Made by a program: the position numbers and the translations under genes. Positions 1-6,542 of a DNA stretch of 6,656 nt are shown here, one piece after another. Every line of letters begins with the position of its first letter. The stretch's first letter is position 1. Source of the DNA: Candidatus Iainarchaeum sp. (GTDB lineage Archaea; Iainarchaeota; Iainarchaeia; Iainarchaeales; 0-14-0-20-30-16); the NCBI GenBank assembly GCA_903916665.1, contig CAIWXP010000118.1:1-6656 (forward strand). The letters run 5' to 3'. The notes under the pieces are model-generated. The model was given only the letters and a program-made list of their open reading frames with translations. It ran no database searches and had not been told where the DNA came from.

Positions 1-934
1 AGAAAAACTCAAATTTGTAATATTGCTTTACTCGAAATACAAATAAATCTGCAATTCCACCAAATCTATCCTTTACTAAATTTATTATATCCTCTAATTC
101 TGAATAATTCTGAACTTCAACATTTAATTCAAAATAAAATCTACTATAACAATAATCAACAAATATAGTATTATCTAAATTTGCGGCAAAACTAATTAAA
201 TCATTAAATTTTACATTATTTGTAAATACAAAACCAATTTTATAATACTCTATTCCTACTTTTTCATAATTTAAATTTATAGAATATCCCATAATAATTT
301 TAGTCTTTTCTAAATTTGCTATTCTATAGGTAATGGTTCTTAAAGGAGCATTTAATTTTAAAGATATTTCTCTCTTACTAGACCTTGCATCTTTACTTAA
401 TAAACTCAATATTTTATAATCTAGATCATCATATTCAACGCTTTCATTACTTCCAGTTGAGAAATAATTCCTATCTTTTTCATCAACTAAATAATTTCTG
501 TTAAAAAAATAGGTTTTCAAATAATAGGTTGGTTCAAAATCAATAATGTATTTTCCATATTTTTCTCTTAAGGTTTTTACTAGTTCATCAATTTCTTTTG
601 AACTTTTTAACCAATTAATACAAGCAACATTAATATCACCAGAACAAATGCCCACAACATCAGTATATTTATTATTAATTAGCCAATCTCTAATTTCAAT
701 TTCTTCTCTTGTAGTTGTATTTTGAAAATTAAAATAAAATCTATAGGCTTGATAACCTAATTTTGAAAAATCAACAATAGCATGCGTTCCCAAAATAATT
801 TTTTCTTTATATAAATTATTTAATCTATAGATAGTAGATGATTCACTTAATTTAATTTTCTTTGATAATTGCTTTATTCCTAATTTTGCATTTCTAGTTA
901 ATTCAAATACTATCTGTTTGTCCTTTTTGTCCAT
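1..934 (-). CDS. Tandem-duplicated Lrp/AsnC-family (feast/famine) transcription regulator; the C-terminus lies beyond the left window edge
   Basis: Hand translation of the minus strand from ATG (934-932) gives 311 codons with no stop down to position 1. The ORF is absent from the supplied track because it has no in-window stop. The product starts MDKKDKQIVFELTRNAKLGIKQLSKKIKLSESSTIYRLNNLYKEKIILGTHAIVDFSKLGYQAYRFYF. A second homologous module starts near aa 169: DDLDYKILSLLSKDARSSKREISLKLNAPLRTITYRIANLEKTKIIMGYSINLNYEKVGIEYYKIGF. Both match the Lrp/AsnC pattern: D.KIL..L..[DN]AR.s..eLa..l.lS..tv..Ri..Le..gvI.gy.a.vd..klG, followed by a beta-alpha-beta RAM-like half. No SD precedes the ATG, so the transcript may be leaderless. 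Confidence 0.75.
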   Translation of the reverse strand, partial: MDKKDKQIVFELTRNAKLGIKQLSKKIKLSESSTIYRLNNLYKEKIILGTHAIVDFSKLGYQAYRFYFNFQNTTTREEIEIRDWLINNKYTDVVGICSGDINVACINWLKSSKEIDELVKTLREKYGKYIIDFEPTYYLKTYFFNRNYLVDEKDRNYFSTGSNESVEYDDLDYKILSLLSKDARSSKREISLKLNAPLRTITYRIANLEKTKIIMGYSINLNYEKVGIEYYKIGFVFTNNVKFNDLISFAANLDNTIFVDYCYSRFYFELNVEVQNYSELEDIINLVKDRFGGIADLFVFRVKQYYKFEFF

Positions 935-1059
935 AATTAGAATAATAATACAAATTATTTAAGAATCTTTGCCAAAAATTCTAATTTTGATAAATAATTA
1001 ATAAATATCACTCACCAACCAAATATCTCTTTGATTCAAATAATCAAAGAGGTGAATAA
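935..1059. promoter_or_regulatory. Divergent intergenic region expected to hold promoters for the Lrp-like gene (minus) and the solute-binding protein gene (plus)
   Basis: This 125-bp non-coding spacer lies between two divergently oriented starts. On the minus strand, TTAAATAA (plus coordinates 955-962) is centred about 24-25 nt upstream of the ATG at 934, which fits an archaeal TATA box driving a leaderless mRNA. An A/T block near 995-1010 (AATTAATAAATAT) is a candidate TATA for the plus-strand gene. The whole region is so AT-rich that the individual box calls are weak. Confidence 0.35.
1027..1051. promoter_or_regulatory. Perfect 10-bp inverted repeat with a 5-nt spacer (CTCTTTGATT caaat AATCAAAGAG): candidate operator or 5'-UTR hairpin overlapping the Shine-Dalgarno site
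   Basis: Read directly: 1027-1036 CTCTTTGATT is the exact reverse complement of 1042-1051 AATCAAAGAG. The right arm overlaps the SD AGAGGTGA (1048-1055), which sits 4 nt before the ATG at 1060. The core TTGATT-N5-AATCAA resembles the A/T-centred palindromes bound by archaeal Lrp-family proteins. Confidence 0.5.
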
Positions 1060-2169
1060 ATGGAAAAGAAAACAATCTTCGGATTGATATTAGGAATAGT
1101 TATAATTGCAATTATAGCAATAATTGGGGTAAATACAAGTGGATTATTTACATTAACAAATAATAATGAAATTAAAATAGGTTTTGCAAGTCCATTAACA
1201 GGAGACGCGAGTTCATGGGGTCTACAAGAAAAGGCCGGTTTTGAATATGCCATTACTCAAATTAATTCAAATAATGGAATTAATGGTAAAAAAATTAATG
1301 TAATTTATGAAGATGATAAATGCGATGCGCAAACCGCAGTAAATGTTTATTCTAAATTTATAAATTTAGATAATATAAAAATAGTTACTGGACCAGTATG
1401 TTCAAGTGTGGCAAAATCTGTTATACCAATAACTGAAAAAAATAATGTGTTTTATTTAGCATCTGGCGCAAGTGAAGATTCAATACCTAGACAAGGAAAA
1501 TTAATTGCTAGACTTTGGATTTCTGATGCCTACGAATCAAAAGCAATTGCAGAATATATTGCAAGGAATTCAAATTGGAAAACCTCTGCAACAATTTATT
1601 ACGCAGATAATCCAGCAGGATTAAGTTCAAAAGACAAATTTGAAAATACAATAAAAGAAAATAATAAAGAAATATTATTAACAGAGGGAATATTAAGAAG
1701 CAATAAAGATTATTCAACATTAATATCAAAAATCTTAGATAAAAACCCAGATACAATTTACATTATTGTTTATCCTGAACAAATTACAGATATAATTAAT
1801 GGATTAAAAGCCTCAGGATATAATGGAACAATATTTGCCTATTCCCCATCATTGTTATCTGAAGGCATAATAGATAAAATAAAAATTAAAAAAGATATTT
1901 ACTATGCACAACCAGTAAAAACACATCAAACCAATTTTTGGGTTAATTATCAACAAGATACAAATAAAATTCCTGATGATGTAACTGCTTTAGGCTATGA
2001 TTCTGCAATGTTTTTAAAATTTTTGTTAGAGCAATGTGGTGAAAATCCTGTTTGCATAAAAGAACAGGTTATAAAAACAGTAAATTGGCAAAGTACAAGA
2101 GGAAACTTTTCCTTTGATCAATATGGTGATTTAAAAGAAATACCTTTTGAAATAAAACAATTAGAATAA
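1060..2169 (+). CDS. Membrane-anchored ABC-type solute-binding protein, LivJ/LivK-like (branched-chain amino acid / type I periplasmic-binding-protein fold)
   Basis: 369-aa ORF with a strong SD (AGAGGTGA) 4 nt upstream. The N-terminus has a hydrophobic anchor (IFGLILGIVIIAIIAIIGV). The mature part matches the LIV-binding protein pattern: IKIGFASPLTGDASSWG..., INSNNGINGKKINVIYEDDKCDAQTAVNVYSKFINLDNIKIVTGPVCSS. Compare E. coli LivJ ...YDDACDPKQAVAVANKVV...GHLCSS, including the conserved disulfide Cys pair. Confidence 0.85.
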   Translation: MEKKTIFGLILGIVIIAIIAIIGVNTSGLFTLTNNNEIKIGFASPLTGDASSWGLQEKAGFEYAITQINSNNGINGKKINVIYEDDKCDAQTAVNVYSKFINLDNIKIVTGPVCSSVAKSVIPITEKNNVFYLASGASEDSIPRQGKLIARLWISDAYESKAIAEYIARNSNWKTSATIYYADNPAGLSSKDKFENTIKENNKEILLTEGILRSNKDYSTLISKILDKNPDTIYIIVYPEQITDIINGLKASGYNGTIFAYSPSLLSEGIIDKIKIKKDIYYAQPVKTHQTNFWVNYQQDTNKIPDDVTALGYDSAMFLKFLLEQCGENPVCIKEQVIKTVNWQSTRGNFSFDQYGDLKEIPFEIKQLE

Positions 2170-2206: not shown

Positions 2207-4267
2207 TTAAATAACTTGCTCTAAAAAATCTTTATCGAAGAAAGCAATATCTTTGTATTCTTGTCCAACTCCTAAAAAAAGAATTGGTTTCTTTAAACCT
2301 AAAGAAATTGATAATAAAGTTCCACCTTTCTCATCAACATCTGCTTTTGTTAAAATGAATGCATCAAAATTAATATATTTATTAAATGATTCTGCTTGCG
2401 CCAAAGCTGTTTGACCAGCAATAGCTTCTGCAACAAATACAGTAAAATCAGGATTAATAACTTTCTTAATTTTTTCTAATTCTTTCATTAAACTTTGTGA
2501 ATTATCCTGTCTTCCAGAAGAATCCACTAAAACAAAATCTAGATTTTTACTTTTAGCAAATGCTACAGCATCATAGGCCACAGATGCAGGATCTTGCCCA
2601 TATTTCCCTTTTATTATTGGCACTTGTAACTTTGTTGCATGACCCTCTAATTGATCAATGGCTGCTGCTCTATAGGTGTCTGATGCTGCCAAAACTAAAC
2701 TCTTACCATGTTGTTTTAAATAATAGGCTAATTTAGCAATATTAGTTGTTTTTCCACCACCATTGGTTCCTACAAATAAAATAGTAAATGGTTTTTTATT
2801 TTGTTTAAAAAAGCTCTCGTCTAAAGATTTGGGATAGTTTTCAAAAACAATATCTAAAAATAATTTCTTTAAGTATTCTTCTTGATGTGATTTTGATACT
2901 CCTTCTTTTTTTATTTTATCTTTTAATGATTTAGTTAATAATTCACAAACTTGTAAAGATACATCACTTTGTAACATAGACATTTCAAACTGTTCAATTA
3001 ATTCAGAGATTTCTGAGTCGCTTAATAAATACTTATCTGCAAATATAGATTTTAATTTTGTAAAAATAGATACTTTCTTTTCAATTTTGGTTTCTTGAAT
3101 TTCTTCTTTTGAAAGTTCTAATTTAATTTCTTTTTTTGGCTCTTCAACTTTAATTTGCGGTTTAACAATTTCTTTCTCTTGTATTTGTTCTAATTCTTTT
3201 TGTAATTGTGAAAATTCATTTGGTAATTCTGTTTTCTTTGGTTGTGCAAAAACGGCTTCTTTTTGAGAAAAGCTTTTTGCAACCTGTGAAGATTTTGATT
3301 CTTCTGATTCTAAATTTTCACTGGCTTTAGGTTCTTCAACTACTTTTTGTTGTTCTATTGGTTTTACTATTTCTTTTTGTATTTCTTCTTTAACTTTAAC
3401 CTTACTTTTAATAGTATAATTCCAACCTGGTTGCCATGCTTTTGGATTCTTTGCACGCCAATCATCTTCTATGGCTTGTTCCCAACTTATATTTTTTAAT
3501 AAAACATCCATTGCTAATTGAGTATATTTATGCGCAACAATTGCAACATGTTTTCCTCTATATTCAGAATATAAAAAGTTTAAAAATTCTGCAATTCTTA
3601 TTTCAACATCTTTTAATGATTCGCCATTTGGAAACGGATTTTGAATTCTATCAAATATATTTGATTCAACTAATTTGACATCTTTGCTATTTAAATCACC
3701 ATGATTACATTCTCTTAATCGTTCATCTTGATTTGCTTCAACATCTTTATCTTCAAATACAATACTTACTGTTTCTATTGCTCTTTCTAAATCAGAACAA
3801 TATACAACATCAAAATCAATATCTTTAATTAAATCTTTTAATTTATTTGATTCGTCAATACCTTTTGAAGATAATTTAATTTGTGACCAACCACTTGCTT
3901 TGTGTTGTTCATTATCTTTAGTTGTACCATGGGCAAAATAAGTAATTAAAACTTCATTTCTATTTACAATTGGTTTTTCTTTTTTAATTTCAGGTATAAC
4001 TATTTCTTTAATTGATTCTTCTTGTATTTCTTTTACTTCAATTGGTTTAGAAATAGGCTGTTCAATTTTAGGTTCAATAAAAATAGGTTCGTCTTTTTTA
4101 ATTTCTGGTTTAGGTTCTTGTGTCAAAATGGATTCTTTTTCTGGAATACTTTTGACATCCTGTGGGAATTTTGATTCTTTAGAGTCTAAATTTTCACTGG
4201 CTTTGGGTTTAGATAGACCTAACTTCTCTCCAAGAGATTGTAGGCCTTTCTTTAACATACCAAACAT
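2207..4267 (-). CDS. ftsY: Signal recognition particle receptor FtsY with an inserted histidine-phosphatase-like domain in the N-terminal (A-domain) region
   Basis: The C-terminal half is a clear SRP-GTPase NG domain. The N-domain reads SDSEISELIEQFEMSMLQSDVSLQVCELL. G1 is GTNGGGKTT (2744-2770), G2 is DTYRAAA, G3 is DSSGRQ, G4 is TKADVDEKGG and G5 is GVGQEY. The N-terminus MFGMLKKGLQSLGEKLG is the typical FtsY amphipathic start. I prefer the ATG at 4267 because GGTGG (4273-4277) lies 5 nt upstream of it. The GTG at 4276 used by the ORF track sits inside that SD. The ORF is continuous with no stops or frameshifts for more than 2 kb. Confidence 0.9.
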   Translation of the reverse strand: MFGMLKKGLQSLGEKLGLSKPKASENLDSKESKFPQDVKSIPEKESILTQEPKPEIKKDEPIFIEPKIEQPISKPIEVKEIQEESIKEIVIPEIKKEKPIVNRNEVLITYFAHGTTKDNEQHKASGWSQIKLSSKGIDESNKLKDLIKDIDFDVVYCSDLERAIETVSIVFEDKDVEANQDERLRECNHGDLNSKDVKLVESNIFDRIQNPFPNGESLKDVEIRIAEFLNFLYSEYRGKHVAIVAHKYTQLAMDVLLKNISWEQAIEDDWRAKNPKAWQPGWNYTIKSKVKVKEEIQKEIVKPIEQQKVVEEPKASENLESEESKSSQVAKSFSQKEAVFAQPKKTELPNEFSQLQKELEQIQEKEIVKPQIKVEEPKKEIKLELSKEEIQETKIEKKVSIFTKLKSIFADKYLLSDSEISELIEQFEMSMLQSDVSLQVCELLTKSLKDKIKKEGVSKSHQEEYLKKLFLDIVFENYPKSLDESFFKQNKKPFTILFVGTNGGGKTTNIAKLAYYLKQHGKSLVLAASDTYRAAAIDQLEGHATKLQVPIIKGKYGQDPASVAYDAVAFAKSKNLDFVLVDSSGRQDNSQSLMKELEKIKKVINPDFTVFVAEAIAGQTALAQAESFNKYINFDAFILTKADVDEKGGTLLSISLGLKKPILFLGVGQEYKDIAFFDKDFLEQVI
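2210..3076 (-). other. ftsY: FtsY core: second amphipathic membrane-targeting motif plus the NG (SRP54-type GTPase) domain
   Basis: ORF-track residues about 401-689. KVSIFTKLKSIFADK precedes the N-domain helices, and the G1-G5 motifs are as listed for the CDS. This part alone corresponds to a complete short archaeal FtsY. Confidence 0.85.
3257..3334 (-). repeat. Linker repeat copy B (EPKASENLESEESKSSQVAKSFSQKE), C-terminal to the phosphatase domain
   Basis: Direct-repeat partner of 4133-4210, in the same reading frame and 876 nt away. See copy A for the alignment. Confidence 0.8.
3407..3955 (-). other. Histidine phosphatase superfamily (branch 1, phosphoglycerate-mutase-like) domain embedded in FtsY
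   Basis: ORF-track residues about 108-290. EVLITYFAHGTTKDNEQHKASGWSQIKLSSKG matches hhLvRHGeT.wN....qGw.D.pLt..G. FDVVYCSDLERAIETVSIVF matches the S.L.RA.qTA motif. DERLRECNHGDL matches d.rL.E..fG.weG. HVAIVAHKYTQLAM matches vlvVsHgg.ir.l. The order and spacing of all four motifs fit the family, but the first motif reads AHG rather than RHG. Confidence 0.7.
4133..4210 (-). repeat. Linker repeat copy A (KPKASENLDSKESKFPQDVKSIPEKE), N-terminal to the phosphatase domain
   Basis: By hand alignment, the 26 codons are about 79% identical in nucleotides (62/78) and 16/26 identical in amino acids to 3257-3334. A 20-nt exact match, tctaaattttcactggcttt, occurs at 4185-4204 and 3309-3328. Confidence 0.8.
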
Positions 4268-4289
4268 GTAAGCCACCTATTGAAAAGAA

Positions 4290-4838
4290 TTATGCCTTCT
4301 TTTCAGCATTTTGTGTTTGTTGTAATTGAGATAAATATTTATACAAGCTATTTATATTGCTTTGAGTTTGTACTAATAATTCATTTACTTTTTTTGCATT
4401 TGCTATTCCTCTTTGTTTTCTCTTTTCTAAAATCGCAATCATATCTTTAGAGGTCTTTGTTAGCATTGCTTTTGATCCGGTATTAACAATAAATTTAGTA
4501 TTATCATCTAATTTTGCTTTTGAAAATATTCCATTTCCAAAATTAATTAAAACTTCTTTATCTTTAGCATATTCTAATTCTGTTAATGCGAAAATTGTTT
4601 TATCTAATTCAAATAAAACTTCTTCTGTTTGTTGCAAATCTGCATTTAATTGTTCCAATCTCTTTTGTTCTTCCTGAAAAAATTTATAGGCTTCTTGAGG
4701 TTTCAATTGAATTGCATCATTATTCGGTTTTCTTTCTTGTTTTTGTTCTGCATTTTCTGCAATTTTTGCTTTTATTTCTTCTTTAACTTTAAGATCTAAT
4801 TTTTTCTTATCATTATCTTTAATATTCTTTTGTGCCAT
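4290..4838 (-). CDS. pfdA: Prefoldin alpha subunit with a Lys/Glu-rich N-terminal extension
   Basis: The layout is coiled-coil / two beta-hairpins / coiled-coil: QEEQKRLEQLNADLQQTEEVLFELDKTIFALTEL ... EVLINFGNGIFSKAKLDDNTKFIVNTGSKAMLTKTSKDMIAIL ... VNELLVQTQSNINSLYKYLSQLQQ. Two hairpins indicate the alpha class. The position between aIF6 and ftsY is the conserved archaeal context. I chose the ATG at 4838, which is preceded by GGCGTGGT. The ORF-track start at 4853 is a TTG lying 2 nt after the aIF6 stop codon. Confidence 0.8.
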   Translation of the reverse strand: MAQKNIKDNDKKKLDLKVKEEIKAKIAENAEQKQERKPNNDAIQLKPQEAYKFFQEEQKRLEQLNADLQQTEEVLFELDKTIFALTELEYAKDKEVLINFGNGIFSKAKLDDNTKFIVNTGSKAMLTKTSKDMIAILEKRKQRGIANAKKVNELLVQTQSNINSLYKYLSQLQQTQNAEKKA

Positions 4839-4855
4839 AAATACCACGCCCAATA

Positions 4856-5515
4856 CTAATCATACAATATATCATTAATTCTAATTAATTCATAACCGGT
4901 TGTTTTACTTCCAACAATTATTCCTTTATCATTTGCTAACATTCCATTGGCAACAAAACTATCACCATAATTTATTGTTGCAATATTACCTTTTACTTTT
5001 AGAATTGTTTCAATTTTTTTAATATCTGTTGGCCCTGCATTTGGAAGAACTGCAAAACCATTTTTATTTGCAACCAAATAACTACCTATTGCTGGTAATT
5101 GTGGAATTTGATATTGAATAACATCTGTGTCTAAAAATTCACCAATTCGTTTAACTGTTTTTGTATCAAACTCTTTACTTACAATTACTGTTTTTTGATC
5201 AGTAAAAATTAAATTACCAATTGCAAAATAAGCATCCAAAAGTAAAACTTCAAAACCTTTCTTTTTAAAAAAATCAACATCTTCTTTATCACTGGTTTTT
5301 GATAATATTATTTTTTTATGAAATACTTTTGCCATTACCCCATTCATCTGAGAACCAGCTATGTTATAACGAATACATTTTACTTTTAAAATATTTTCAA
5401 TTACTTTTTCTTCTTTATCAGTAAGGATATCTGGAACTATTGCAAAATCCTTTCCCAATGCAACAAATATACCAATATGTGGCATATTGTCAATGTCTAA
5501 TTTTGCAATTTCCAT
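4856..5515 (-). CDS. eif6: Translation initiation factor 6 (aIF6/eIF6)
   Basis: The 219-aa product has the pentein-repeat pattern typical of aIF6: PHIGIFVALGKDFAIVP, NIAGSQMNGVMAKV, FAIGNLIFTDQKTVIVS, PAIGSYLVANKNGFAVLP, SFVANGMLANDKGIIVGSKTTGYEL. Length and gene context match. A GGT SD-like motif lies 6 nt before the ATG. Confidence 0.9.
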   Translation of the reverse strand: MEIAKLDIDNMPHIGIFVALGKDFAIVPDILTDKEEKVIENILKVKCIRYNIAGSQMNGVMAKVFHKKIILSKTSDKEDVDFFKKKGFEVLLLDAYFAIGNLIFTDQKTVIVSKEFDTKTVKRIGEFLDTDVIQYQIPQLPAIGSYLVANKNGFAVLPNAGPTDIKKIETILKVKGNIATINYGDSFVANGMLANDKGIIVGSKTTGYELIRINDILYD

Positions 5516-5523
5516 ATTAAAAC

Positions 5524-6072
5524 CTACTTTTTACTTTCTTTTTTTTCTACTTTATGTTCTATTTTATGTTCAACAACATGTTCTTTTGGTTTATCAGTTT
5601 TTATTTCTACTTTCTGTTCTAAATTATGTTTTACAGCCTGTTGTGCTTTATGTTCAACATTAGATTTTACTGCTTTTGCAGTTTTATTTGTTGATTTTTT
5701 AACTGCAGGTTCTTTAACAGGGTATACTTTCTTTTTAACTTCGGAAACTTTACCTGAAACAAATTCTTCTTTTTTAATTTGATCTTCTTTAGTATCTAAA
5801 AATAAATATACTTTACCATTTTTTTCAACACTTGTGAAACTAACTTTGCTTGGCGCATTAACTCTACCTTTACCCCAAATAAATAAATTTATTCCTGGTG
5901 ATACAATACATTCTTTATTTCTAAAATGTTTTTTTAATTGTACTTTAAAAGCAGTCATAGCGTGTTTTGCTTTATGATTAAAATTTTTTCCTCTAATATC
6001 CAATCCAACAGTAATTTTCTTTTCTGTACTTTTTTCAACAACCTTTTTATCGGCAACTTTCTTGTCTACCAT
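5524..6072 (-). CDS. rpl31e: 50S ribosomal protein L31e (eL31) with a long Lys/Glu/His-rich C-terminal extension
   Basis: The core (aa about 20-95), ITVGLDIRGKNFNHKAKHAMTAFKVQLKKHF...INLFIWGKGRVNAPSKVSFT, matches archaeal L31e (compare Haloarcula ...NHKRADKAM...AWARGRANTPSKIRVR). The SD GGTGA lies 6 nt upstream, inside the L39e gene. The ATG overlaps the L39e TAA by 1 nt (TAATG). Confidence 0.9.
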   Translation of the reverse strand: MVDKKVADKKVVEKSTEKKITVGLDIRGKNFNHKAKHAMTAFKVQLKKHFRNKECIVSPGINLFIWGKGRVNAPSKVSFTSVEKNGKVYLFLDTKEDQIKKEEFVSGKVSEVKKKVYPVKEPAVKKSTNKTAKAVKSNVEHKAQQAVKHNLEQKVEIKTDKPKEHVVEHKIEHKVEKKESKK

Positions 6073-6275
6073 TAATTATCACCTTTGTTTTTTTCTCTTC
6101 TTTCAAACTCGTGACCAAATTCAGTTCTTTTCCAAGTTCTCTTAGATTTATCATTGTACAATCTTGTACCTGTTTTTTGCATTACCCAAACAGGCGCACT
6201 AAATAATCCCTTTGGTGTTTTTCTTCTTGCAGTTCTTAAAAATGTTTTTTTCTCTAATGTTTTATTTGAAGACAT
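6072..6275 (-). CDS. rpl39e: 50S ribosomal protein L39e (eL39)
   Basis: The 67-aa basic protein contains SAPVWVMQKTGTRLYNDKSKRTWKRTEF, matching the L39e signature (compare [26 protein letters not shown]). The SD GAGGAAGTGA lies just upstream. The protein is about 16 aa longer at the C-terminus than typical L39e. Confidence 0.85.
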   Translation of the reverse strand: MSSNKTLEKKTFLRTARRKTPKGLFSAPVWVMQKTGTRLYNDKSKRTWKRTEFGHEFERREKNKGDN

Positions 6276-6281
6276 ATAAGT

Positions 6282-6542
6282 TCACTTCCTCACTATATTA
6301 AAATCTCTTGAATTTACTGCTTGCATTAAAATTTGTTTCAATGTTGAATCATCAACTGGCAAATCAAATTTATTTTGTTGTGCAGCATTCACTAAGAAAT
6401 TTGCAACTTGCAAATATCTATCTAAATTTACTAAACGTACGTTATTTAATCGTTCTCTTGCTTGAGAATCTAAAATTTTATAAAGCATTAAATCAATTTT
6501 CTTCATTTCTTCTGTAGTCAATTGATTTTCTTGCTCACTCAT
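6282..6542 (-). CDS. PDCD5/TFAR19-like DNA-binding protein (MTH1615 family)
   Basis: The 86-aa product contains ILDSQARERLNNVRLVNLDRYLQVANFLVNAAQQNKF...VDDSTLKQILMQAV...RDFNIVRK. This parallels the archaeal family pattern ILTPEARsRLanlrL..p......E..Li.lAq.g.....itdeqLkelL......r..kI.rk. The position between S19e and L39e is the conserved context. Confidence 0.8.
   Translation of the reverse strand: MSEQENQLTTEEMKKIDLMLYKILDSQARERLNNVRLVNLDRYLQVANFLVNAAQQNKFDLPVDDSTLKQILMQAVNSRDFNIVRK

Follow-up and report, generated by a model that had tools for sequence, protein, structure and literature searches.

Introduction

In the receptor of the signal recognition particle (SRP), as known from E. coli-type FtsY and SR-alpha, an N-terminal amphipathic helix is followed by an A region that is both charged and variable, by a second helix where the A and N regions meet and by the NG GTPase. 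The ftsY gene described here, located on the minus strand of contig CAIWXP010000118.1 from Candidatus Iainarchaeum sp. (6,656 nt, hereafter called the window), encodes all of these elements but differs in that its A region holds a folded 185-residue enzyme domain of the histidine phosphatase superfamily. No FtsY with a catalytic domain in its A region has been described in the literature searched. Known histidine phosphatases of this type, including PhoE/YhfR (1H2E, 1EBB), PspA/iPSP1 (4IJ5) and CobC (6NRU, 6E4B), share with the inserted domain the overall fold, the nucleophilic His, the second Arg, the Glu of the RLxE motif, the distal His, a length of ~180-210 residues and the lack of the C-terminal tail typical of cofactor-dependent phosphoglycerate mutase (dPGM). 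However, the insert is only 24-27% identical to these proteins, belongs to a clade with Val or Ala in place of the Arg of their 'RHG' motif and carries the signatures HGTTxDNE and DWR...WQPGWxY.

Our analysis leads us to view the gene product as an ordinary SRP receptor that has acquired an optional, probably active phosphatase tethered by disordered linkers, and to regard this fusion as one of many. We assign this interpretation a probability of roughly 0.55.

Results

A phosphatase domain within the A region of an archaeal FtsY

On the minus strand, the reading frame is uninterrupted over positions 2207..4276 when read from a GTG codon at 4276 (689 residues). An in-frame ATG at 4267, three residues further downstream, initiates the sequence MFGMLKK..., and the resulting protein of 686 residues, whose stop codon lies at 2207-2209, is identical to the database protein P0001. 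The span 2207..4267 initially proposed from the letters of the window (the sequence-only reading) therefore fits both the start codon and the database entry, and residue numbers given below are counted from this ATG.

The sequence-only reading had divided this single open reading frame (ORF) into five parts, a layout on which a full-length AlphaFold2 (AF2) model of P0001, built on 51 relatives, and searches against Pfam and NCBIfam agree (all of the following features on the minus strand). The N-terminal amphipathic helix MFGMLKKGLQSLGEKLG (4217..4267), corresponding to the membrane-targeting motif of FtsY, is modelled as a helix at residues 3-16 and has a hydrophobic moment of 0.37. Its MFG.LKKG motif is conserved in the alignment of insert-free and insert-bearing orthologues, and by analogy to known FtsY proteins it probably mediates membrane binding. 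Linker 1 (3959..4216) is rich in K, E and P and predicted to be disordered, with a predicted local distance difference test score (pLDDT) of ~30-37. It leads into the phosphatase domain (3404..3958; residues 104-288), which is followed by the K/E-rich linker 2 (3077..3403), again mostly disordered apart from one short predicted helix, and by a junction helix (VSIFTKLKSIF) with a complete NG domain (2207..3076). In the model, pLDDT values fall below 50 at residues 18-93, 295-349 and 365-405, whereas they reach 95-98 in the folded region spanning residues ~100-290 and 85-98 in the NG domain. With a predicted template modelling score (pTM) of 0.48, confident packing between the domains is not predicted.

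The identity of the C-terminal part is clear. Pfam recognizes SRP54_N (E=1.1e-5) and the SRP54 GTPase (E=8.8e-67) in the translation, and the last 290 residues score 281.2 bits against the FtsY model TIGR00064, whose cut-off is 260.7. The GTPase motifs G1 to G5 (GTNGGGKTT, DTYRAAA, DSSGRQ, TKAD and GVGQ) are intact and invariant in the alignment of relatives, so that the second amphipathic motif and the complete NG domain noted at the outset both stand. By contrast, the assumption that archaeal FtsY normally consists of a short N-terminus directly followed by the NG domain needs to be revised, because insert-free FtsY proteins of the window's clade already possess a K/E/P-rich linker of ~120 residues in the alignment.

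The inserted domain, originally claimed for residues 108-290, was recovered by both profile and fold comparisons. It matches the Pfam family His_Phos_1 with E=7.1e-28 and 98 bits (cut-off 21.7), and AF2 models the 185-residue core with a pLDDT of 96.9. A Foldseek search with this core returned PhoE (1H2E), PspA (4IJ5) and CobC (6NRU, 6E4B) with TM-scores of 0.78-0.81, a probability of 1.00 and root-mean-square deviations of 2.0-2.8 Å at the level of identity given above. The four motifs of the superfamily had also been proposed, and their key residues are indeed in place: the phospho-acceptor H113 (codons A112-H113 at 3929..3934, aligned to R8-H9 of 4ij5), R162 (3782-3784), E186 (3710-3712) and the distal H246 of the phosphate pocket (3530..3532, supported by codon check and alignment; the codons of R162 and E186 were verified in the same way by codon check). 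The first motif, however, reads A112-H113-G rather than RHG. Among 80 fused homologues, the position of the missing Arg is occupied by Val in 71 cases and by Ala, as in the window, in seven; the change is a clade-wide substitution and not a local defect. By comparison, H113, N119, R162, R183, R185, E186, E216, R224 and H246 never vary, either in these 80 proteins or in an alignment of 38 sequences (A1), all 24 invariant columns of which are kept in the window's insert.

Among His_Phos_1 proteins, the insert is a member of a separate clade, marked by the signature VKITYFVHGTTxDNE ... SDLxRA ... RLRECNYG ... PNGES ... AIVAHKAPQLA ... DWR..K.WQPGWxY. It stays below the cut-off of every named NCBIfam equivalog (CobC, PspA, dPGM and GpmB), with 77.8 bits against 162.9 for CobC (TIGR03162), 57.9 against 350 for PspA (NF045917), 51.7 against 81.7 for pgm_1 and 42.4 against 225 for dPGM_arch (family models TIGR01258/NF038349). 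There is no solved structure for this clade, the best sequence match in the PDB having an E-value of 9e-21.

The composition of the insert (GC 0.277; GC at third codon positions, GC3, 0.10) corresponds to that of the NG domain (GC 0.284; GC3 0.14). What had been judged by eye as a uniform composition thus holds up in numbers, and a foreign composition of the insert was ruled out. The ratio of nonsynonymous to synonymous substitution rates (dN/dS), estimated by the Nei-Gojobori method and only rough at a GC3 of ~0.1, was 0.50-0.70 for the window's insert, compared to 0.09-0.18 for its NG domain; a comparison of the insert between L006 and L007 gave 0.20.

The insert is complete, in frame and facultative

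In the alignment with insert-free orthologues, the insert is bordered on either side by FtsY-derived sequence, and the MFG.LKKG helix, parts of the K/E/P linker and the K.SIFTKLKS junction motif all have their counterparts. The extra segment, as delimited by alignment and profile search, is equivalent to an entire free-standing protein (~181 residues) minus its start and stop codons. This finding upholds the view that the gene arose by insertion into ftsY and not by read-through between two genes. Capture of a neighbouring gene or loss of a stop codon was considered and rejected, because in the insert-free relatives the 10 kb around ftsY contain no free-standing His_Phos gene, which excludes a simple fusion of neighbours.

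Since the window consists of one short contig (6656 bp) and the exact P0001 protein is found on one contig only, without an entry in the gene-position index, an assembly chimera or a frameshift that joined a phosphatase gene to ftsY had to be considered. We regard such an artefact as practically inconceivable, since FtsY proteins with a His_Phos_1 insert form 49 protein clusters at 90% identity that originate from independent assemblies, namely P0001 itself, P0002 (from Logan SRR7616076), P0003 (from JGI 3300005077) and 46 further clusters. The presence of FtsY sequence on both sides of the insert and the even base composition along the gene argue in the same direction. Together with the finding that nine of the best 80 species-level loci carry the FtsY fusion, these clusters also contradict the impression that the architecture is rare. 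It had further been suspected not to be a described one, and in this respect we found no account of either the fusion or the phosphatase clade in the literature searched, although coverage was incomplete and this result is absence of evidence only. Fused FtsY sequences are already public but annotated merely as FtsY.

The last 290 residues of the window's FtsY are 90% identical to the insert-free proteins P0004 and P0005, compared to 84% and 79% identity to the insert-bearing proteins P0002 and P0003, respectively. Within the tight FtsY clade that includes the window, three of the 12 members carry the insert, and every bearer has an insert-free sister. The insert is therefore facultative, and its absence from FtsY proteins that are 90% identical implies that the SRP receptor works without it. 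A scan of metagenomes for near relatives of the window's FtsY returned three loci, all of them distant. Because the inserts of P0001, P0002 and P0003 are mutual closest relatives, the simplest history would be a single gain followed by repeated precise loss, or else an exchange between alleles.

The insert is flanked by two copies of a direct repeat (family D1) that share 75% DNA identity over ~110 nt (z=16). One copy (KPKASENLDSKESK...; 4092..4209, minus strand) lies in linker 1 and the other (EPKASENLESEESK...; 3216..3333, minus strand) in linker 2. At the protein level, their local alignment score of 125 was not reached by any of 2000 shuffles (maximum 100), and the DNA score of 90 compares to a shuffle maximum of 43. 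In the alignment, insert-free relatives have the motif once, at one or the other position, and the repeat is absent from L006 and L007, which are the nearest relatives with an insert, as well as from the GlyRS and ValRS loci. For these reasons, we do not read it as a target-site duplication, but it could mediate loss of the insert. Inverted repeats were not detected at the boundaries of the FtsY insert (z=2.1).

The phosphatase clade is mostly free-standing and has many hosts

A clade profile built from 38 fused copies matched more than 7000 protein clusters at E<=1e-10. The sequence-only reading had left it to database searches whether the closest relatives of the insert are free-standing phosphatases or other FtsY proteins, and the answer points to the former. 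The best 120 of these matches are all free-standing, ~181 residues long and named simply 'histidine phosphatase family protein'; their sources are Nano-, Woese-, Pace- and Aenigmatarchaeota as well as Patescibacteria. A search of species-representative genomes matched at least 543 loci, and classification of the best 80 yielded 66 free-standing and 14 fused copies, the latter joined to FtsY (nine), GlyRS (two), ValRS (two) and a Ser_hydrolase (one). In the protein-cluster search, FtsY (49 clusters) and GlyRS (20) were accompanied by class I aminoacyl-tRNA synthetases (aaRS), GyrA, uL22, a GatA-like amidase and NYN. Further searches added HD domains, an alpha/beta hydrolase, a thermosome and IleRS, giving at least ten unrelated host proteins overall.

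The domains are not grouped by host, because their mean identity is 0.60 for pairs of FtsY proteins and equally 0.60 for pairs of FtsY and GlyRS. For 47 fused FtsY proteins, the distances between NG domains and those between phosphatase domains are only weakly correlated, with a Spearman coefficient of 0.21 (Mantel p=0.019), and the nearest neighbours agree in 23 of the 47 cases, which is suggestive of vertical inheritance of the domain at shallow depth and decoupling further back. In the domain tree (neighbour-joining, as for all trees in this study, and thus without support values), archaeal and bacterial copies are interleaved.

The free-standing gene lacks a conserved neighbourhood, with NUDIX (eight of 64 loci) and SDR (seven of 64) being the most frequent neighbouring families. 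Guilt by association was thus abandoned as a source of functional clues, having produced no more than weak associations with NUDIX, SDR and Ser_hydrolase proteins. Some copies are found within ribosomal-protein clusters, as in L095 with the order uL11-[gene]-L37ae, and others adjoin genes for a class II aaRS, EF-G or the CCA enzyme. In a Pacebacteria genome (GCA_028697015.1; L092:65-3116), and likewise in L093 and L094, only 3 nt separate the start of the gene from a preceding PF09509 (Ymh) gene, which itself follows genes for an HNH endonuclease, a helix-turn-helix (HTH) protein and a resolvase, a context that resembles a mobile or defence island.

The Ser_hydrolase family PF06821 is co-fused with the phosphatase in FtsY (P0017, P0026, P0057 and P0252), GlyRS (P0095) and ValRS (L074). 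In a Micrarchaeaceae contig, it forms a direct fusion with the phosphatase, and in some Saccharibacteria it is encoded by an adjacent gene, the loci concerned including L044:4995-5802 and L059:3941-4555. This pattern suggests that the two enzymes form a module. Certain ValRS proteins (P0362, P0327, P0382 and P0386) contain one to four His_Phos_1 copies interleaved with segments of the catalytic core. These copies fall into the canonical RHGES clade, and the ValRS proteins with two to four of them were therefore rejected as evidence on the clade of the window; they are an independent case of phosphatase insertion into ValRS. Another ValRS, P0086 from Patescibacteria, shows the peptides MQNAECRMQN / NAECRMQNAEC just before its insert (~430-445) and again ~250 residues further on (~700), which looks like a short DNA repeat that was inserted in frame and translated.

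Many carriers of this gene of the candidate phyla radiation (CPR) and DPANN archaea derive from metagenome-assembled genomes (MAGs) that are labelled as Clostridia, Gammaproteobacteria, Omnitrophota, Gastranaerophilales or Methanosarcinales (L016, L019, L076, L078, L027, L030, L083, L041, L049, L008, L009 and L025). To judge from the flanking genes and the FtsY fusions, several of these labels seem to be incorrect, as a result of mis-binning or automatic naming.

One subclade of free-standing genes resides in an inverted-repeat cassette

In one subclade, the free-standing gene is part of a larger conserved block. The loci L024, L040, L041, L049, L060, L083 and L085 share 87-94% DNA identity over ~730-850 bp only, and the flanks beyond are unrelated. 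The reference block lies at L040:2486-3222, and more distant equivalents exist in L023 and L036. The cassette comprises the phosphatase ORF with ~85 nt upstream and ~110 nt downstream, starts with GTTAAACGAAATCGAGAAAAGAGC and ends with ...TCGTTTAAC. Three nested inverted repeats, GTTAAACGA...TCGTTTAAC, TCGAGAAAAGAGC...GCTCTTTTCTCGA and GGGGCAAAACTT...AAGTTTTGCCCC, bracket the ORF and are significant against shuffles (z=7-11). Judged by their ORFs, the flanks are archaeal in L024 (an LSm gene) and L085 (Mre11/Rad50-like genes, in a MAG labelled Woesearchaeota) and bacterial in L083 (uL11-NusG) and L041 (DnaG). The cassette documents movement of the phosphatase gene between archaea and bacteria.

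The block looks like a tiny mobile cassette with a single ORF. A motif of ~48 nt (CACCCAAATTTTTCTTCC...GAAAAACTTCGTATATCCC), which may be an att-like site, flanks the cassette as a direct repeat in L049 (1512-1560 and 2327-2375) and recurs downstream of it in L040 (3251-3298) and L041 (2070-2117 and 4789). In L041, a tyrosine-recombinase-like ORF (379-1191, minus strand) adjoins the cassette. The cassette is present in ~7-9 of the 64 free-standing loci and was rejected as a general feature of the clade because it does not extend beyond this one subclade. Neither the phosphatase gene nor the cassette was found in collections of viral, plasmid and phage sequences. The cassette leaves the insertion of the bare ORF in frame unexplained.

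The window's ftsY occupies the canonical archaeal position

Upstream of ftsY and in the same orientation, the window contains a block of genes (4290..6542, minus strand) for a prefoldin-alpha-like protein (4290-4853), eIF6 (4856-5515), L31e (5524-6072), an L39e-like protein (6072-6275) and a PDCD5-like dsDNA-binding protein (6282-6542), and the C-terminal part of S19e leaves the window at its right end. The order S19e-dsDNA_bind-L39e-L31e-eIF6-prefoldin-FtsY, as given by Pfam labels, is common to the insert-free loci L001-L005 and the insert-bearing loci L006 and L007. The window's ftsY thus occupies the canonical archaeal position and is an ortholog of the SRP receptor gene.

Two of the neighbouring proteins have extensions. 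L31e comprises 182 residues, compared to 134-150 in its relatives, with a long C-terminal tail rich in K, E and H, and the prefoldin carries a K/E-rich extension at its N-terminus. Charged low-complexity extensions seem to be general in this genome. On the other side of ftsY, direct reading of the sequence pointed to an ORF with two repeats of Lrp/AsnC-like HTH and ligand domains (MDKKDKQIVFELTRNAKLGIKQLSKKI...) that runs off the left end (1-930, minus strand) as well as a lipoprotein-like periplasmic substrate-binding protein (1060-2169, plus strand). A Peripla_BP_6 homologue is likewise located near ftsY in L006.

Discussion

Our results suggest that a complete DPANN/CPR protein of ~181 residues with a histidine phosphatase fold was inserted in frame into the disordered A region of ftsY. 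The product would resemble beads on a string, with a membrane-binding helix, a linker of ~85 residues, the compact phosphatase, a second linker of ~110 residues and the NG GTPase. Based on its motifs and family membership, the NG domain is expected to pair with SRP54 in a GTP-dependent manner and to deliver ribosome-nascent-chain complexes to the translocon. The phosphatase is most likely an active phosphomonoesterase, because it retains all the clade-invariant residues, including the phospho-acceptor and distal His, the second Arg and the Glu. Fusion would provide it only with co-expression with ftsY and a tether that keeps it near the membrane and the ribosome. The insert would thus be a facultative passenger, dispensable for targeting, and the FtsY fusion one of many independent unions between housekeeping proteins and a promiscuous, horizontally spreading gene. 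A dedicated regulatory or enzymatic link at the translocon, as envisaged in the sequence-only reading, is not supported, since the same domain is mostly free-standing, occurs in at least ten unrelated hosts and is missing from FtsY proteins that are 90% identical.

Several observations weigh against this interpretation. No characterised member of the clade was found among the profile matches or the PDB sequence matches, the Arg of the 'RHG' motif is replaced by Val or Ala throughout the clade, and the window's copy evolves fast, so that the constraint acting on it may be relaxing. Moreover, the hosts are mostly translation and targeting proteins, which could reflect real functional coupling instead of passive tethering. 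In that case, which amounts to a broader version of the proposed translocon link, the substrate of the phosphatase would be a phosphorylated protein, a nucleotide or an RNA end located at the ribosome or translocon and reached in cis or locally; removal of inhibitory phosphorylation from FtsY, an aaRS or ribosomal proteins would be one example. Such a role would explain the repeated fusion to proteins of this kind, with FtsY and GlyRS dominating a list that also includes class I aaRS, uL22, the GatA-like amidase and the thermosome. It would further fit the strong conservation of the catalytic residues and the occasional location of free copies in ribosomal-protein clusters or beside genes for a class II aaRS, EF-G and the CCA enzyme. 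We nevertheless consider it doubtful, given that the insert is optional among nearly identical FtsY proteins, that most copies are free-standing without a conserved neighbourhood, that GyrA, HD, NYN and Ser_hydrolase hosts are unrelated to translation and that docking of the phosphatase on the NG domain is not predicted. In addition, informational genes are abundant in the genomes of CPR and DPANN organisms, and the enrichment among hosts may thus be a sampling effect.

At the other extreme, the gene could be a selfish or neutral mobile module that settles in those linkers and loops of essential genes which tolerate an in-frame insert, the FtsY copy being one such case without benefit to the host. 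The highly similar cassettes of one subclade, with their nested inverted repeats and their archaeal and bacterial flanks, point in this direction, as do the interleaving of archaeal and bacterial copies, the polyphyly of the fusions, their patchy presence among close relatives and the location of the gene beside resolvase, HNH and Ymh genes in one bacterial genome. Yet the cassette is confined to a small minority of free-standing loci, and the fused copies in GlyRS, ValRS, L006 and L007 show neither inverted repeats nor target duplications. A transposase or homing endonuclease is not associated with the gene, which is also absent from the viral, plasmid and phage collections; strong purifying selection on the active site across the clade argues for a cellular function; and insertion of a bare ORF in frame has no known mechanism. 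Taken together, these points render a purely selfish or neutral module rather unlikely. A further scenario, tentative at best, is that the ~181-residue 'VHGTT' phosphatase is mobile between CPR and DPANN organisms, in at least one lineage as part of an inverted-repeat cassette of ~730 bp, and lodges repeatedly in frame in essential information-processing proteins (FtsY, GlyRS, ValRS, IleRS, GyrA, uL22 and the thermosome), possibly as a cis-tethered 'guardian', thereby filling the niche of an intein without splicing. The insert in the window's FtsY would then be one of these events. Finally, the loss of the 'RHG' Arg and the raised dN/dS of the window's copy would be expected if the domain were a catalytically dead fold that serves as a binding module or spacer. 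We consider such a pseudo-enzyme improbable, as the set of residues that never vary fits an active site and not a scaffold.

Both parts of the protein belong to known families, which makes its fusion, taken alone, little more than a curiosity. The greater interest lies in the pattern seen across the clade and not in FtsY itself. The phosphatases in question occur almost exclusively in CPR and DPANN lineages, which are ultra-small and probably symbiotic. The clade crosses the boundary between domains of life at high DNA identity and has been grafted repeatedly into proteins of translation, targeting and replication. Functional grafts would point to a phospho-dependent layer around translation in CPR and DPANN organisms that has so far gone unrecognised; selfish or neutral grafts would constitute a new way for genes to persist in minimal genomes. 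The clade represents an abundant protein that is easily expressed and assayed.

It is instructive to compare these fusions with other proteins that combine unrelated activities. Like inteins, the phosphatase inserts in frame into housekeeping genes (FtsY, aaRS and GyrA), shows a patchy presence among close relatives and bears signs of horizontal spread. Unlike inteins, it has no Hint or endonuclease domain and lacks the Cys/Ser/Thr...His-Asn residues at its junctions, which read ...PIVNR|NEV... and ...TIKS|KVK..., and it keeps an active site of the metabolic type that is presumably retained in the mature protein. An intein was rejected as a candidate because Pfam yielded no Hint, Intein_splicing or LAGLIDADG match at E<=0.1. 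His_Phos_1 domains are also joined to unrelated enzymes in PFK-2/FBPase-2 (1BIF) and in the mycobacterial RNase H/acid phosphatase (NF005567), both of which appeared as weak matches. However, these fusions are terminal, follow an evident metabolic or nucleic-acid logic and are fixed in their lineages, whereas the present domain lies inside a linker, is optional and turns up again in many hosts.

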